DNA from: Rozella allomycis CSF55
Lineage: Eukaryota
DNA length: 64,000 nt
Reading direction: 5' to 3'
Assembly: GCA_000442015.1 (NCBI GenBank)
Contig: KE561117.1
Coordinates: 62,001 to 126,000, forward strand
The notes under the pieces were generated by a model. That model did not search any database and was not told the origin of the DNA. It saw nothing but the letters and a program-made list of their open reading frames with translations. Every line of letters begins with the position of its first letter. Position 1 is the first letter of the stretch. Positions 1-58,381 of this stretch are shown one piece after another. The translations under genes and the position numbers were made by a program.

Positions 1-8
1 ATACCTGA

Positions 9-2010
9 CTAAATTAGTTTATTTAAATTGATATCAATAGTATTTTTGTTTCCAATCCTACCAACCGCGTCGACTACTTGTATGGATATTTTAACATTCT
101 CACCCACAGCTTGATAATTGTAATTCGCCACAAAGTAGCAATTTAGTCCAGCTATACCATGCAACTCATCATTCAAATAAATATGATAACATTGATAAGG
201 GAAGCACTTGTAATCATCTGTTTCAATGTCCCAACTGATTTCAAATGAACAAATTTGGTCGTTGGATCTATCAACATTTAGCACGCGCATGTTTTCAACG
301 CTAAAATGGTCTGAATTAGAAAAGTCGGAGTACATTGAGACAGCACCAAGATAGAACTTGGAATCATGAAGGTAGTCGAAAAGAATATTTAATTCTGATA
401 TCTCAACACATTGATGAAAATTTAGGATAAGAGTCAAGTCACTCCAACTATTGATTGTCTCAAAGCTATAGGCTTCTATAACCATGTGTTCATCTGACCA
501 CAAAGGAATCTGTTTCGGATCCAAGGGAAACTTTATGTTATTGCCTTGGCTGAACGACAACTTGATAAAAGGATATTGATTGTTGCTACTAAAAAATATC
601 ACTTTAAAATTTATGGCGCTTGAGCTCTGTAATTGTAGTTTAAATAAAGGGATTTCTACGTTGAAGAAAGGCGTGGATTCTGCCGCCAAAAGAAGAGAAC
701 AACCTTTATGAAAGACTTTCTCATGACAGAACTTGTAAATAAAATTAGAAGAATCAATTTTAGAATTTAGAATAAATCTATATGTTGGCTGAAGACTTTG
801 AAGTGTTAGGTTTGACCATTCCCCATGTTTAAGCTTAATCCCATCAACCCAATATCCATTCCTGCCATACCCTTGGCAAAAATCTGTATAAAAAATTGAT
901 GACTTTGGTAGCGCAAAAGGTTCCACGTATCCGGATATACTCTGCAAGGCTATCCAAATTTGACTAAAATTATTACCTTCCCAAATCTTTGCGTTTTTCT
1001 TTGTAATCCAAAACTTTATTTCGTTTTCTTCAAATTCACTTTTGTCTTTTGATTCATATGTCCAGGCAGGTGCGAATAAGGCACATGAAGTGCCAGCATC
1101 GGCTATGACTTGGAGGGCCTTTGAAAAAATTAAAATTAAGTTTAATACTTTGTAAGTATCATAACCACCTCCACCATATGTATTTCTACCCCAAATATCA
1201 ATTCCGGTATAAACTTTTCTGGCGCGTTCTTTGGCTAGAATTGCAGATTCTCTTGGATGCATTACACTCCAAAAGTAATTAATAAATATTCCATCAGCGA
1301 CATTGAAAAATGGAAGATTCAATTGATTCAAACGGTTTTGCCACTTTATTTCACCATCAATTGTTAAGCTGTCATACCAAATGACTTTTCCATGTGGTAT
1401 TCTCTCATGGATCTTCAATTTCAGGCATTTCACAAAGTTTAATAGCTCTGGTACTAGACTATCAGGTAGTGGACTCTCAATATTAATAAACCACCCATCG
1501 AATCCATAATACTCTGCAAGTTTAACAAGAATATCAACATAATGGAATTGCCCAAACTCATTTCTTCTGACTACGTTAATGTTATTTGTTATCCCGTCTT
1601 TTCCCTCAGTTATTATGGTTCCCTATTCTCATCTATTTCAATTCTCTGTACCAAGACTATGACACCGTCTTTATGGGCTGCATTTATCCAACAGGGCGTA
1701 GGTATTGTTATTAAGTGATGGGAAAAATAGATGAATATATTGATATACTGCCAGTACTGAATGTTGTAACATACACTTGTTGACCAGTTTCCTTGAATTA
1801 AAGAATCCTCCTTGTACCCTATTTTGATAGATATTAAAAGTTACCACCCATCATGTCATGACAGACAATAACTTCTAAACAATTCTCTGGTATACTGCGG
1901 GGCGTGAAAGGATAAAATCTTTTGGCAAATTTTTCATGATCATGGGCAATTTCTTTGTTCCAGTTATCAACTTCCTCCAAAGACGTTAAAGGCTTCGAAT
2001 GCGGTTCCAT
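9..2010 (-). CDS. ENGASE: Cytosolic endo-beta-N-acetylglucosaminidase (GH85)
   Basis: Spliced model MEPHSKPL..VCHDMMGGYKED..VLGTIITE..DGIFINYFW..VYTGIDIWGR..ALFAPAW; introns 1819-1844 (26 nt), one of 29 nt, and in-frame 1119-1148 (30 nt). Confidence 0.9.
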
Positions 2011-2081
2011 CAAAACTTGAACGCCACAAATCTTTTAACTTTTTTAAGATAAAGACGGTAATAGATTTTTATTTTTTACAT

Positions 2082-3144
2082 TTAATTATTTCTAAGCTCA
2101 TCAAAGTATGGATGCCTTAAAGCCTCTTTGGCAGTAATGCGTTGACCAGGTTCGTACACGAGCATCTTTTGAAGTAAATCAAGTCCAAAATGGTCTAATT
2201 TACAAACTTCTGCAAGATTAATTCGAGGCCATTTAGGGAAATTGGCTTGATAAGATGGTAGAGACGAAACACCCGGCCAGGATTGCTCACTTGGAGTTCC
2301 AAGAATTCTTTTTGTTGATGTAAAATAGAAAATACCTAAAAATTTTAAATAATTCATCAATTTCGGAATCTCCAGGGAAAAATGCCTTCTTGTTGGCCAT
2401 TTCATAGAAAATACAACCAATCGACCAAACATCGACAGCGGTTGAATAATGGCGGGAACCCATTAAGATTTCTGGCGCACGATACCATAAGGTAACAACC
2501 TTATCAATAATGAATATTCTCATTACTTCATGGGTATATGTTCTCACAGGAATACCGAAAGCACGAGCAAGCCCAAAATCGGCTATTTTTAATGCCCCCT
2601 GGGTATCGATAAGCAAATTTTGAGGCTTTAAATCTTTTACACTTGAATATTATGAATACCTCTGTGAATGACCCGATGTCCATGACAAAAAGCGATACCC
2701 TTGAGTAATTGATGGAGATAACTCTACAACAAAAATGACAGGAAAATTTACTTTAACTATCAATGGACTTAATTTGCCTTCACATTTATCCATGTATCTC
2801 TTTAAATCAAGGTCGAGGAATTCAAAAACCAAATATAGTTTCTTTTCATAATTGACAACATCAAGTAATGCAACAATATTCGGATGTTGAAGCTCTTTTA
2901 GGAGAGATATTTCTCGGATAGCGGTTGCAGGAACCTTATTTTAGACGAATTTAATGGTTACTCCTTCCTCCTCTGATTCCAATCTTATCTTCTTTAGGGC
3001 TACGATGTTCCCTGTAGCATTCTCGATTGCCTTGTAAACAACACCATAGGTTCCCTCTCCTATTTTCTCAATCTTTCTGTACGTTTCACTAACTTTATTG
3101 TCATCTTTTTGTGAAATATGTGACTCTTGAGGCTGTGCGAGCAT
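2082..3144 (-). CDS. CDK1: Cyclin-dependent kinase, Cdc2/CDK1-like (PATAIRE helix)
   Basis: [58 protein letters not shown]; five 26-28 nt GT-AG introns. Confidence 0.9.
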
Positions 3145-55511: not shown

Positions 55512-55585
55512 CTCGGGAAATTTCTGAATATACTTGTGAGAAAAAATATCTGAAAACTTTGTAAAATTAAATTGAAGTTGTTTAT

Positions 55586-57654
55586 TTATGAAAATAGTTT
55601 GATGAGACCGTCAGCGCCTGAACTAACCAACCAAGGTTGTTGAATATGGAATTGACAGTTGAGAACACCGAGCCCGCCTTTGTTTGAATGGCAGCGTAAA
55701 ATTTTAACAGGTACGATTAAAGGATTTTGCAATAAATCTTGGTAGACCATTCCATGATAAACTTGAGTAGTTCCATCATCAGAGCAAGAAGCAAACAAGG
55801 GATAATTGCGATGAAAGACAACATTTCTCACGGCCTTTTTATGAAATCTTAAAACTTTGTAAGGCTTTGGAGAAAGTTCCATATCAATCCAACAAACTTT
55901 TTTATCGTAACTTCCGACAATAATATTATCACCTGGATTGAAGAATTAAAAAAGTTTTACCTGAAGGATGAATGGACATGCTTGAAATCCATCTAAAACC
56001 AGGGCTTAATTTTCTAACTAGTTCTTGTTTAGAGAGATCATAGATTCTAATGAATTGTTGAGTCGCGACATAGAATAAAGGTCTCTTTGGATGAAACAAA
56101 ACGTTTTGAACAATTCCACCAACTTTTTTAAAAGGATTTTGACTAATTTTCTTTGAAAGTTGATGAATCAGAACCGATTTGCTTGAGTGGCCTTGTGAAG
56201 CCACAGTAGCGAAATAGTCACCCTTGTTATGCCAGACACAAGATTTAACTTGGGCTGAATGGTTTATTTCCAATTGAGTTTCATCAATTAATTTCCATTC
56301 AGCTGCTTTGGATTCAAAATTCTCAAGTTTTAAAATTTGTTTTGTGGATTCAGAAATTTCTTCGTCTGCAACGTCTGGATGAACAAGAATAATTTTCTCT
56401 CCAAACACAACAGCAAACAAAGAAATAGAAACAGAAGGATTCCAAACAACTTGTTGGATGACTTCATCGTAGGTCCAAGTTTGAATACAACGGCCAGTCA
56501 TCAATTCCCATAATTTAACAGTATTGTCATCAGACCCTGAAACTAACCATTGCCCAGTTGGATCTACAGAAACAGATCTAACCCTGCCAGAATGACCCTT
56601 GTACACAACTGATAAAATAGATGGAAAAGGTTTCAACTCCTTTGGATCAGGAAGTTTTGGAATCAATGACTCGGGATCTATATTAATCTATTTTAAAAGT
56701 AAAAAATCTGTTTTACTCTATTCTTACGAACACGTGGGCATAGATAAAGATCTAGGCACCTCTCAAATCTCTCTTGAAAAAATTTATTATAAGCAGGAAT
56801 GTGACGCATGCAATCAAATTTGCGTGGAATAAATGAAGTTTCTCTATCCTTAGCATCTTTAGCTTCCCACTCCTTCTTTTCTTCTTCAGTCATTAAATAC
56901 TCTTCAGGTGGGTTATAAGACTCTGCATGTCCAGGCAATTTAATCTTTGGCGCAGGAATCTTATCAGTTCTCTTTGGCTCTTCAGAATCATTCCAAATGT
57001 CATAAAATTGGGGTTTCTTTTCAGTTTTTGGTCCATGAGGAAGAATCAATCCCTTTCTTATAGCTCTAACAACCTTCATTATCTTTTTTTAAAAATTAAA
57101 TGACATTACCTTTTGATGTTCCCATTTGGATGGTAAAAATCTCCTCTTAGGTTCAGGCTTGCTTAAAACAGGATGAATACTTTGTTTGTAAGTAAAGAAA
57201 TCCACCGCATCTTCATAAGGATCAGCTTCCGTTGCAAATGAACCTTGCTGAAGCTTTTGAATAATATCAATTTCTTGCGGTGTTAACACTATGTCCTTGT
57301 CATCAACATCATCATGAATGGTTCTCCAATACTTCGGATCATCCATCTTGGCCAAAAACTTTTCAAGTTCATCTGCAGTTGCTGGCTTCATAATCTTTTT
57401 CCCGTCAACGTCATATCCGATATGCGGATACTCTTCGTACCACTCTCTAGGTACTTTCCCCGTCCTGTTTATTGGCCCCTTTTATTATTAACAAAGCTTT
57501 ATACCGCTTCCAGATCCGAATCAGAGTCTTGGTCGTCGTTGAAAACAACAGTCTTGTCTTGCTCAGATTCAAACTCTGTATTTTCAGTACCCGTCATTTC
57601 ATCTTCAGAATGAATATTTATATCCGCCTCTTCATTGTCTTGCTTTCTTTTCAT
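55586..57654 (-). CDS. ERB1: Ribosome biogenesis protein Erb1/BOP1
   Basis: [49 protein letters not shown]40 repeats, [12 protein letters not shown]. Confidence 0.95.
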
Positions 57655-57815
57655 ATTTTTTCTTGTGGCTTGGCTGCTTGACTGAATAGAGCACAAAACC
57701 AATGAATTGAATAATATTTCAATTATTGCATTATTTCCTTCAAAATGAATAATAATTATTAATATTGATTGTCAACTATTAATGATGCTATTTTGAATCT
57801 AATCCCCAAGCCACT

Positions 57816-58381
57816 ATGAATGGCAAAAACGAAAAATTTTTGGGCGTAAAGACAAGAAGAAGATCTTCAGTAAATAAAATTTGGTTTGGGGATCATATTT
57901 ACGCCATGGAAGATCCAAAGATTCTGAGTATACTGAGCAAGCATAATGAAGATCGCATAGAGTTTACTGACTATGCTTGGGAAATTACGTCAAAAAATAA
58001 ACCAAAAAATAGACTAATTCTAGTTTCAGGTAATGAATTTAATTTTTAGTGAAATGAAAAATATATGTACGTTATTGAGCCGACAAGCTACAAAATACGA
58101 GAACGAATTCCAATCTCCAGATTTGAAACCATAAAGATCAGTCAGCTGGCGGATAACTTTTTTGTAATTTCCATCGAGAATGGTTGTGATATATTCTTAC
58201 AATGCAGTCGTAAAACAGAACTTATTTCAAGATTGGGGCAACTCTACGAAGCACAGACGATGGAAAAGTTAACTGTATTATGCACAAACAGGTAATCTCT
58301 TTGGGTCATTTTTATTAGATTTACATTTAGATACGAAAAGAAAAAGATTAGAAAGGTCCTGTTTGAAGAGACAAACGAAGA
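57816..58381 (+). CDS. Motor-less myosin-I TH1-domain protein, 3' end lost in the gap
   Basis: GVKTRRRSSV..FGDHI..EFTD..RLILVSEKYMYVI..ISQLADNFFVI..KTELI; introns 58030-58056 (GT-TG) and one GT-AG. Confidence 0.7.

Follow-up and report, generated by a model that had tools for sequence, protein, structure and literature searches.

How does a spliceosome find its branch adenine and its 3' splice site when the whole intron is about 26 nucleotides (nt) long? Both choices, and the minimum tail from branch to 3' splice site, are long-standing questions that have mostly been studied with mutants. Rozella allomycis, whose annotation counts about 20,000 introns (20,623 as tabulated in PMC8476143), would offer a natural system in which to examine both distances. 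We analyzed a window of 64,000 nt of strain CSF55 (contig KE561117.1, positions 62,001 to 126,000), in which a first-pass annotation had described minimal introns with loose acceptors. The gene sequences suggest that splicing in this organism is positioned mainly by distance.

Intron lengths and the lower edge

Curation that was independent of the first-pass annotation, and that used a length prior, gave 171 modelled spliceosomal introns in about 38 gene models on both strands (9..58318). Their lengths are 26-34 nt (46 at 26 nt, 51 at 27, 33 at 28, 18 at 29, 16 at 30, 5 at 31, 1 at 32 and 1 at 34), with a mean of 27.6 nt and 75% AT. All 171 begin with GT, which the model required; the donor is GTA in 165, and only 29 have G at +5. 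The SPRY-LisH-CTLH (RanBP9/10-type) gene (16219..17380, minus strand) contains five introns of exactly 26 nt, as first reported (donors at 17380, 17021, 16870, 16382 and 16244), and all five have A at +23. The longest intron of the set, 34 nt in the LMW-PTP gene (9390..9423, plus strand), has no AG at 16-33.

The lower edge was re-tested with a gene finder under a flat 14-90 nt length prior; a run with a lenient intron penalty gave noise and was discarded. The flat-prior run placed 30 introns at 26 nt, 25 at 27, 23 at 28, 12 at 29 and 5 at 30, with 1 at 25 nt, 2 at 24 and 14 of 132 below 26 nt overall. The 26-30 nt class holds 13 of 95 introns in the reversed control and 14 of 90 in the complement-only control. 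Homolog profiles that ignored the acceptor dinucleotide chose the curated length in 27 of 34 introns from five genes, all of them 26-32 nt. The range of 26-34 nt given at first pass is thus upheld by the modelled set, and its edge survives the flat prior; the claim that no intron is shorter than 26 nt is less secure for nine introns, where an in-frame AG below 26 from the same donor may be the one used.

These nine bear on a different reading, in which an ordinary but sloppy spliceosome, together with nonsense-mediated decay, would use AGs close to the donor, AGs at 26 and TGs, each at some rate. The floor would then be a soft optimum of efficiency, made sharper by deletion bias, and reconstruction by frame would see productive junctions only. 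Frame and homology do tell which junction is needed and not which junctions are used, 9 of the 11 same-donor in-frame AGs below 26 in the curated set are still candidate acceptors, and at AASS 19959 a second donor offers a 22-nt alternative that scores 2.4 bits higher. However, the edge is very abrupt under the flat prior (30 vs 1), and the in-frame AGs below 26 that homology can judge (CDK5 at 23 and UBE2C at 24) both need the longer intron. A soft optimum would also not yield an A at +23 in 44 of the 46 introns of exactly 26 nt, and we regard this reading as quite unlikely.

At some introns the evidence favors neither length. In MMS2 intron 1 (46255..46281, plus strand), TAG at 24 and TAG at 27 differ by 0.3 bits of homology. 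The RabGGTase alpha intron (31643..31670, minus strand) has AAG at 25 vs TAG at 28, and a PDB search placed its junction in a variable loop. For the CBR1 intron with alternatives of 13 vs 31, the PDB search gave no decision.

An adenine at a fixed distance from the donor

The first-pass annotation saw no branch-type signal and missed a positional one: an A at +23 from the donor (A23), present in 125 of 171 introns against a background of 35% (P about 5e-24). The intron-finding model held no term for this position. A23 is found in 44 of 46 introns at 26 nt (both exceptions have G), 30 of 51 at 27, 23 of 33 at 28 and 28 of 41 at 29 nt or more. Since it is kept at 28 nt and longer (51 of 74 introns), its position follows the 5' end, with a log-likelihood of 48.9 counted from there vs 17.8 for the best 3'-anchored position. 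Among flat-prior introns of 26-33 nt, 72 of 99 have A23; the figure for exonic GTA controls is 115 of 364. In introns fixed by homology it occurs in 37 of 54; all 14 of 26 nt have it, but among those of 28 nt or more the signal is weak (9 of 18).

Little else surrounds this adenine. The trinucleotide TRA ends at +23 in 26 introns vs 12 in shuffles, a weak preference, and CTRAY is not enriched (7 of the 168 introns vs 10.4 in shuffles), which agrees with the lack of a consistent motif noted at first pass. Of the 27-nt introns, 21 lack A23, and in 17 of these an A stands at 22 or 24. In 14 introns, among them the homology-fixed CDK1 2751, CDK5 5031, CDK5 5424 and AASS 19063, positions 21-25 hold no A, so that their branch would have to lie elsewhere or be a non-A. 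A second, U/G-rich class among the introns without A23 was considered and found no support (all P>0.3).

Acceptor choice and skipped AGs

The used acceptor is the first AG ending at 26 nt or later in 166 of 168 AG introns; moving this threshold to 25, 24 or 27 nt lowers the fit to 162, 149 and 123 introns, respectively. An unused AG at 18-25 is carried by 42 of the 168. Distance clearly matters in the choice of the 3' site, which the first-pass annotation held to be largely set by it, but a strict AG-level ruler is not demonstrated, because avoidance of interior AGs at 26 or beyond in longer introns is not significant (2 observed vs 4.7 expected, P=0.15). The 13 AGs skipped at 24 need no further cause, since A23 alone predicts about as many (10.9). 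The base at -3 is T in 90 AG introns, A in 47, C in 22 and G in 9; AAG is thus common and GAG recurrent, and the eight GAG cases listed earlier are all in the curated set.

All six AG skips cited in the first-pass annotation were recovered with the same positions, strands and AGs. MMS2/UEV intron 2 (46422..46447, plus strand, 26 nt) ends in GAG; the AAG that it skips at 24 includes the +23 A, and the GAG at 26 gives the same spacing as in 9 of 9 motif-matching homologs. The RasGEF A intron (29886..29912, minus strand, 27 nt) passes over AAG at 25 for GAG, and the paralog RasGEF B aligns gap-free across the junction. CDK5 intron 1 (4474..4505, plus strand, 32 nt) passes over a TAG at 23 that is in frame, with length 32 ahead of 23 by 7.9 bits and no insert in 66 of 66 matching homologs. 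We add UBE2C intron 2 (8497..8526, plus strand, 30 nt), where an in-frame TAG at 24 is skipped for AAG at 30 (6.8 bits; matching spacing in 90 of 93 homologs), and a TLG2 intron (55267..55293, minus strand, 27 nt), in which AAG at 24 would give an in-frame stop.

The remaining three cited skips are imposed by reading frame. That of the DNAAF6-like gene (45708..45736, plus strand, 29 nt) concerns an out-of-frame AAG at 24. The other two each skip an AG at 26, so that, as first noted, the rule is not a strict first-AG rule. The CTL intron (23631..23661, minus strand, 31 nt) skips AAG, with Pfam contiguity within one residue; its base at +23 is C, followed by A at 24-25, so a branch moved by 1-2 nt would fit. 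A second TLG2 intron (55073..55100, minus strand, 28 nt) skips TAG though it has A at +23, and is a real exception to our best model.

A direct donor-to-acceptor ruler, the model inferred at first pass, would take the first AG at 26 nt or beyond, with a variable branch upstream and the +23 A serving as a protein or snRNA contact. The fit to 166 of 168 introns is what it expects, and 46 of 171 introns lack A23, 14 of them with no A at 21-25. For introns of 26 nt, moreover, branching at -4 would be sterically demanding: judged by P-complex structures, with a 3-nt tail a single nucleotide would separate the branch A from the -2 A, its normal pairing partner. Such a ruler nevertheless leaves unexplained why the sole conserved internal base is an A, near-invariant at 26 nt and 5'-anchored otherwise. 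There is no other A peak at +7 to +22, and the CTL intron, which skips an AG at 26, is one that has lost A23. We consider this reading unlikely, although it is the alternative that we take most seriously; the gene sequences point to a donor-to-branch-A ruler over a donor-to-acceptor one.

TG acceptors

Acceptors had been described as AG only. This is so for 168 of the 171 introns, and the other three end in TG, two of them firm and one probable. All three have A23, are 26-27 nt long and offer no in-frame AG in the range of about 26-34 nt. The first, firm by homology, is intron 6 of the CDK5/Pho85-like kinase (5157..5182, plus strand, 26 nt, A at 5179), which has no AG before 42 nt. Its TG is 38.7 bits ahead of the best AG alternative, it is the sole non-AG intron chosen by the homology-blind model, and its removal gives the motif spacing of 61 of 63 homologs. 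The second lies in the myosin-I tail (TH1) gene (58030..58056, plus strand, 27 nt), where TAG at 20 leads to a stop and the next AG is at 50. Pfam Myosin_TH1 positions 61 to 64 run across the junction with exactly the two expected residues; a PDB search found no relative of this TH1 domain. The third, in an NT-C2 domain gene (42528..42554, minus strand, 27 nt), is in frame and stop-free, so retention is the alternative. Removal leaves 43 residues for 42 profile positions and retention 52, which makes a TG intron the probable reading.

The TG sites could stem from faulty assembly or from rare alleles, and priors in the reconstruction could have produced the hard floor, with only the short introns real. 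The TG sites are indeed seen in assembled sequence only, the window itself shows faults of assembly (at 9495 and 11527, single Ns accompanied by local duplications), and the curated set used a length prior. Against this partial artefact, the floor is seen under the flat prior and is absent from the controls, and three TG sites in 171 introns share the -2 position, the length of 26-27 nt and A23. In addition, the GenBank CDK5 records EPZ32722.1 and RKP20596.1 carry an identical truncated model and the two AASS records differ in sequence, which indirectly suggests that separate assemblies both lack an AG at the CDK5 site. A search of metagenome contigs for a second copy of that site gave no matches. 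We find such an artefact very improbable.

A proposed mechanism

The reading that we favor, and hold to be somewhat probable, is a U2-type spliceosome with its branch A fixed near +23, which then takes the first usable (N)AG. Its introns would be U2-type introns reduced to three elements: GTA at the start, a single A inside and (A)G at the end. Donors carry GTA with little else, and the A stands at +23 at any intron length. This A would be the branch point, placed by its distance from the 5' splice site and not by pairing with a U2 motif, in a lariat loop of about 23 nt that is presumably the shortest this spliceosome can hold; in introns without A23, a neighbouring A probably serves. The 3' splice site would be the first usable NAG beyond the branch A, so that the shortest intron is 23+3 = 26 nt. 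An AG at 24 could not serve, as its A would itself be the branch A, and one at 25 would lie too close to it. With so short a tail, the bases at -3 and -2 may be checked loosely, AAG and GAG being common and TG taken where no in-frame AG lies at about 26-34.

Comparison with other short introns

Tiny introns and 5'-anchored As are already published for other lineages. Myxobolid myxozoans and Dicyema japonicum have ultra-short introns (median 22-27 nt) with, as in Rozella, a donor reduced to GTa, a weak acceptor and no or a tiny pyrimidine tract; in longer introns, weakly conserved As lie farther from the AG and were speculated to be the branch site (PMC13644364). Those introns have 2-3 weak As, whereas Rozella has one position, 96% A at minimum length and 3 nt from the end. 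The available text of that paper makes no mention of non-AG acceptors, in contrast to the three TGs here, and the word Rozella does not occur in its main text. The 15-16 nt introns of Stentor coeruleus, as described in the part of PMC9505925 at hand, are likewise AU-rich with a lone positional A without consensus. There, however, the A is at 10 (15-nt introns) or mostly 11 (16-nt introns), fixed from the 3' end with a 5-nt tail, whereas Rozella would have a constant loop (23) and a tail of 3-11 nt. The same part reports that Slu7 and Prp18 were not found in the Stentor genome.

Prp18 has been described as a ruler for the minimum branch-to-3' splice site distance, and its deletion in Saccharomyces cerevisiae activates branch-proximal sites and allows GAG and BG (including UG) 3' sites (PMC10711555). 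This is the signature that loose checking of -3 and -2 would leave in Rozella, as read from its genes; the yeast sites are a mutant phenotype, alternative and at shortest 7 nt away, whereas those of Rozella are apparently required in wild-type genes. The proposed 3-nt tail would be below the shortest in the published accounts available to us (5 nt in Stentor; in yeast 10 nt naturally and 7 nt without Prp18). Among the results listed by literature searches, there was no Rozella inventory of Prp18 or Slu7. Human U2-type introns also use TG acceptors, but in the cases covered by the available text of PMC2374985 always as alternatives beside an AG and never as the sole site, whereas the CDK5 and myosin introns have no usable AG nearby.

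Paramecium (median 24-25 nt, PMC12862383), the Bigelowiella nucleomorph (18-21 nt, PMC6009652) and microsporidia (PMC6349667) share with Rozella narrow lengths, GT-AG ends and few signals. According to the portions of these papers available, in Paramecium lengths fall below as well as above the mode (15-100 nt), unlike the abrupt lower edge here; the nucleomorph introns show no discernible branch A, in contrast to the A at +23; and microsporidia keep conserved donor and branch motifs. Two S23 introns of R. allomycis, about 30 nt long and without those motifs, are described in PMC6349667, and intron medians across fungi are given as 29-197 bp (PMC8042348).

Other signals, curation and annotation

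U12-type RTATCCTY has 10 matches in positions 1-58381, none at a modelled donor, and Rfam gave no match in the window. Pyrimidines show no positional rise ahead of the AG; five-pyrimidine runs occur in 62 introns vs 48.5 in mononucleotide shuffles, a control blind to homopolymer bias. Introner elements were rejected, as 14,028 pairs of 168 introns yielded no families of similar sequence; the best two pairs are RasGEF paralogs, and 16 pairs reach 16 matches vs 5-12 in shuffles. RNA run X1 on 38400-58380 gave 33 partial matches, 22 of them less than 90% alike, and no joints, which speaks neither for nor against the modelled junctions. A search for relatives with a BOP1 exon returned 23 loci at 26-47% identity, none close.

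Several model introns were rejected: the in-frame ENGase 1774, HMG 36895 and MARK 44206 (conserved coding, by inspection), RasGEF A 29985 with a 25-nt intron at 29912 (by the paralog), Nup98 11536 (assembly N), 35575 (merged genes) and 46115 (junk). CcP 25422 was replaced by 25433, and the uncertain 12721 and 34392 were left out of counts. Added by hand were GPN2 7478, UBE2C 8908, LMW-PTP 9390, CcP 25733, GEP4 17726 and 18268, two in the 51766 gene, CDK5 5157, myosin 58030, ALG8 40824, and NT-C2 42699 and 42554. This matters for annotation, as public gene models lose or retain segments around tiny or TG introns: the CDK5 model P0031 lacks a conserved kinase segment because a TG acceptor is disallowed, and the UBE2C model P0151 retains a 27-nt intron. 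Errors of this kind may have raised the annotated mean, which stands at about 46 nt.

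Length distribution of the introns

A gene finder limited to GT-AG introns, with a flat 14-90 nt length prior and self-trained codon usage, returned 132 introns in the window. The most frequent lengths are 26 nt (30 introns), 27 nt (25), 28 nt (23), 29 nt (12) and 30 nt (5). A single intron of 25 nt and two of 24 nt were called, 14 of the 132 are shorter than 26 nt in total, and others are scattered above 34 nt. The same model placed only 13 of 95 introns within 26-30 nt on the reversed sequence and 14 of 90 on the complement-only sequence. A second build, which combined an empirical length prior with hand curation, gave 171 introns of 26-34 nt; as this curated set was built with a length prior, its absence of short introns is no independent evidence for a floor.

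The lengths were independently assessed by homology in five genes with homologs, by scoring all in-frame lengths from 14 to 40 nt with the acceptor disregarded. The modelled length came out best for 27 introns out of 34, each of them 26-32 nt long; the remaining seven lie in variable or thinly covered regions. The largest margins against modelled lengths are 6.4, 5.9 and 3.8 bits, and the competing ends are not splice-like. The lone GT-AG alternative below 26 nt that beats the modelled intron by more than 1 bit is at AASS 19959, where a second donor gives 22 nt (+2.4 bits, from a two-sequence profile). About 20 further junctions are backed by the Pfam profile coordinates of the neighbouring exons. 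The six introns cited in the first-pass annotation, which had proposed a 26-nt floor, match their description in the sequence. The pattern is real, beyond chance and richer than that description, and we consider it very improbable that its hard floor and the TG acceptors described below are artefacts.

An adenine at a fixed distance from the donor

The first-pass annotation had reported no CTRAY branch motif. CTRAY is indeed not enriched (7 occurrences, 10.4 expected), but a positional signal was missed: of the 171 introns, 125 carry an A at position 23 counted from the donor, for a background of 35% (P about 5e-24). By length, this A is found in 44 of 46 introns of 26 nt, 30 of 51 of 27 nt, 23 of 33 of 28 nt and 28 of 41 of 29 nt or more. 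The log-likelihood is 48.9 when the A is anchored at +23, compared with 17.8 for the best 3'-anchored position. The intron-finding model has no term for position +23; the A is present in 72 of 99 flat-prior introns and in 115 of 364 exonic GTA controls. Among homology-fixed introns it is detected in 37 of 54, including all 14 of 26 nt and only 9 of 18 of 28 nt or longer. Fourteen introns have no A anywhere at positions 21-25.

The donors are GTA, and +5 is a G in just 29 of 171. The +3 A is absent at six donors (GTG at 18952, 32299 and 33808, GTT at 31670 and 49800, GTC at 20494), all of which retain the A at +23. The introns have the end dinucleotides of U2-type introns and lack an enriched CTRAY motif; in sequence they resemble U2-type introns, no modelled donor has the U12-type motif RTATCCTY, and they are not introner copies.

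Choice of the acceptor

An unused AG ends at positions 18-25 in 42 of the 168 AG-ending introns, and at 23-25 in 19. The A at +23 accounts for the excess of AGs that end at 24: it alone predicts 10.9, and 13 are seen. Most skipped AGs are ruled out by the reading frame. A frame-open GT-AG alternative below 26 nt exists in 46 introns, 11 of which use the same donor. Homology settles two of these 11, with the longer intron preferred both times: CDK5 (32 nt over 23 by 7.9 bits) and UBE2C, where 30 nt scores 6.8 bits more than 24 nt and gives the spacing seen in 90 of 93 homologs. Short and long lengths are both compatible in the other nine, notably MMS2 46255 (24 or 27 nt), as well as RabGGTase 31670 (25 or 28 nt).

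The rule that the first AG at position 26 or later is used fits 166 of 168 introns, compared with 162 for a start at 25, 149 at 24 and 123 at 27. The two exceptions previously pointed out, CTL 23631-23661 (-) and TLG2 55073-55100 (-), are indeed the only two. Interior AGs at 26 or later number 2 against 4.7 expected, a depletion that is not significant (P=0.15) in a test of low power for a set of this size. A ruler acting directly from donor to acceptor could be behind the fit at 26; set beside the A at +23, we regard it as possible and rather unlikely.

The acceptor context is loose, as had been noted from the sequence: the -3 base is T in 90 introns, A in 47, C in 22 and G in 9, for an interior composition of 42% T, 38% A, 10% C and 10% G. 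The pyrimidine preference at -3 is thus merely mild.

In the assembled sequence, a few introns end in TG. Removal of a 26-nt GT-TG intron in CDK5 (5157-5182, A at +23) regains a segment with the spacing seen in 61 of 63 motif-matching homologs, with a score 38.7 bits above that of any AG-ending alternative. When any acceptor was permitted, a homology-blind model chose it as the sole non-AG intron. An identical CDK5 model without the segment is found in two GenBank records. In the myosin-I tail gene, removal of a 27-nt GT-TG intron (58030-58056, A at +23) lets the Pfam TH1 profile run on from 61 to 64; a TAG at 20 gives a stop there, and the following AG comes only at 50. A third GT-TG intron, 42528-42554 in the NT-C2 gene, is only probable, as the stretch is in frame and stop-free. 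The A at +23 is present in all three. The rate of 3 in 171 may be an undercount because homolog profiles covered only five genes. The whole pattern might instead reflect sloppy splicing in which decay removes the wrong products, which we find rather unlikely.

A putative donor-to-branch ruler

On balance, the sequence leads us to lean towards a mechanism in which the A at +23 would be the branch point, placed by a fixed donor-to-branch distance, and the acceptor would be the first usable NAG past it. The floor would then correspond to 23+3, and so short a tail may loosen the checking of -3 and -2. What weighs most against this branch-ruler reading is that the tail would be only 3 nt long, that some introns have no A close to +23, and that TLG2 55073-55100 passes over a TAG at 26 although the A at +23 is present.

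Tiny introns are documented in ciliates, nucleomorphs, microsporidia, dicyemids and myxozoans, and two introns of about 30 nt without motifs are already mentioned for S23 of R. allomycis (PMC6349667). In PMC13644364, weakly conserved As move away from the AG as introns lengthen, and the authors speculate that these As are the branch site; a 5'-anchored branch A is therefore not new in kind. In Stentor (PMC9505925), a single A keeps a constant distance from the acceptor, leaving a tail of 5 nt, whereas the Rozella A is tied to the donor; neither Slu7 nor Prp18 was detected in Stentor. PMC10711555 reports that GAG, BG and branch-proximal sites become active in yeast without Prp18. In humans, a TG acceptor always accompanies an AG and is never used alone (PMC2374985), unlike in the Rozella CDK5 and myosin introns. 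The human donor-to-branch minimum given in PMC11291888 (about 46-50 nt) is twice the putative Rozella loop. A literature search in which most subscription journals were not covered turned up no account of the 26-nt floor, the A at +23 or the TG acceptors in Rozella.

Gene models and organization of the window

An in-frame intron of 27 nt at 8908-8934 (+) is left unspliced in the public model of UBE2C (P0151); taking it out raises the score against homologs by 7.8 bits. Two micro-exons lie between pairs of tiny introns: one of 11 nt in LMW-PTP (9257-9267, +) and a probable one of 7 nt in a PGP phosphatase-like gene (17719-17725, +). The RasGEF paralogs at 28836-30925 (-) and 47006-49547 (+) are 64% identical over 438 aa and have four intron positions in common, with sequence resemblance persisting in two intron pairs. 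In the exon at 40390-40560 (+), the ALG8 model carries about 50 residues in excess of the Pfam profile; the stretch appears coding, not intron-like.

The gene at 44979-45415 (-), previously labelled p22phox, has just a weak DUF7727 match (E 0.0096) and presumably resembles TVP18-type membrane proteins. A gene of unassigned function at 33292-34405 (+) matches a putative peptidoglycan-binding domain (PG_binding_1, E 3.8e-05). The Nup98-96-like gene (9820-14734, +) shifts abruptly in composition along its length, from a purine-rich acidic portion to an AT-rich portion with long exons lacking introns.

Lone Ns at 3842, 9495 and 11527, with short local duplications on either side, are apparent assembly joins; those at 9495 and 11527 disrupt the LMW-PTP and Nup98 frames, respectively. 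An exon at 20804-21172 shares 100% identity with a Rozella allomycis CSF55 protein (P0001, EPZ32733.1), and the exons of CDK5 and UBE2C likewise match R. allomycis records. Positions 1-58381 are dense in genes (GC 35%), and the sequence beyond the N gap is retrotransposon-like. This region (58556-64000, 3' of the 174-N gap) holds degraded, in part duplicated Ty1/copia-like remnants, in which a gag zinc knuckle and integrase-like and reverse-transcriptase-like stretches were recognized by eye.
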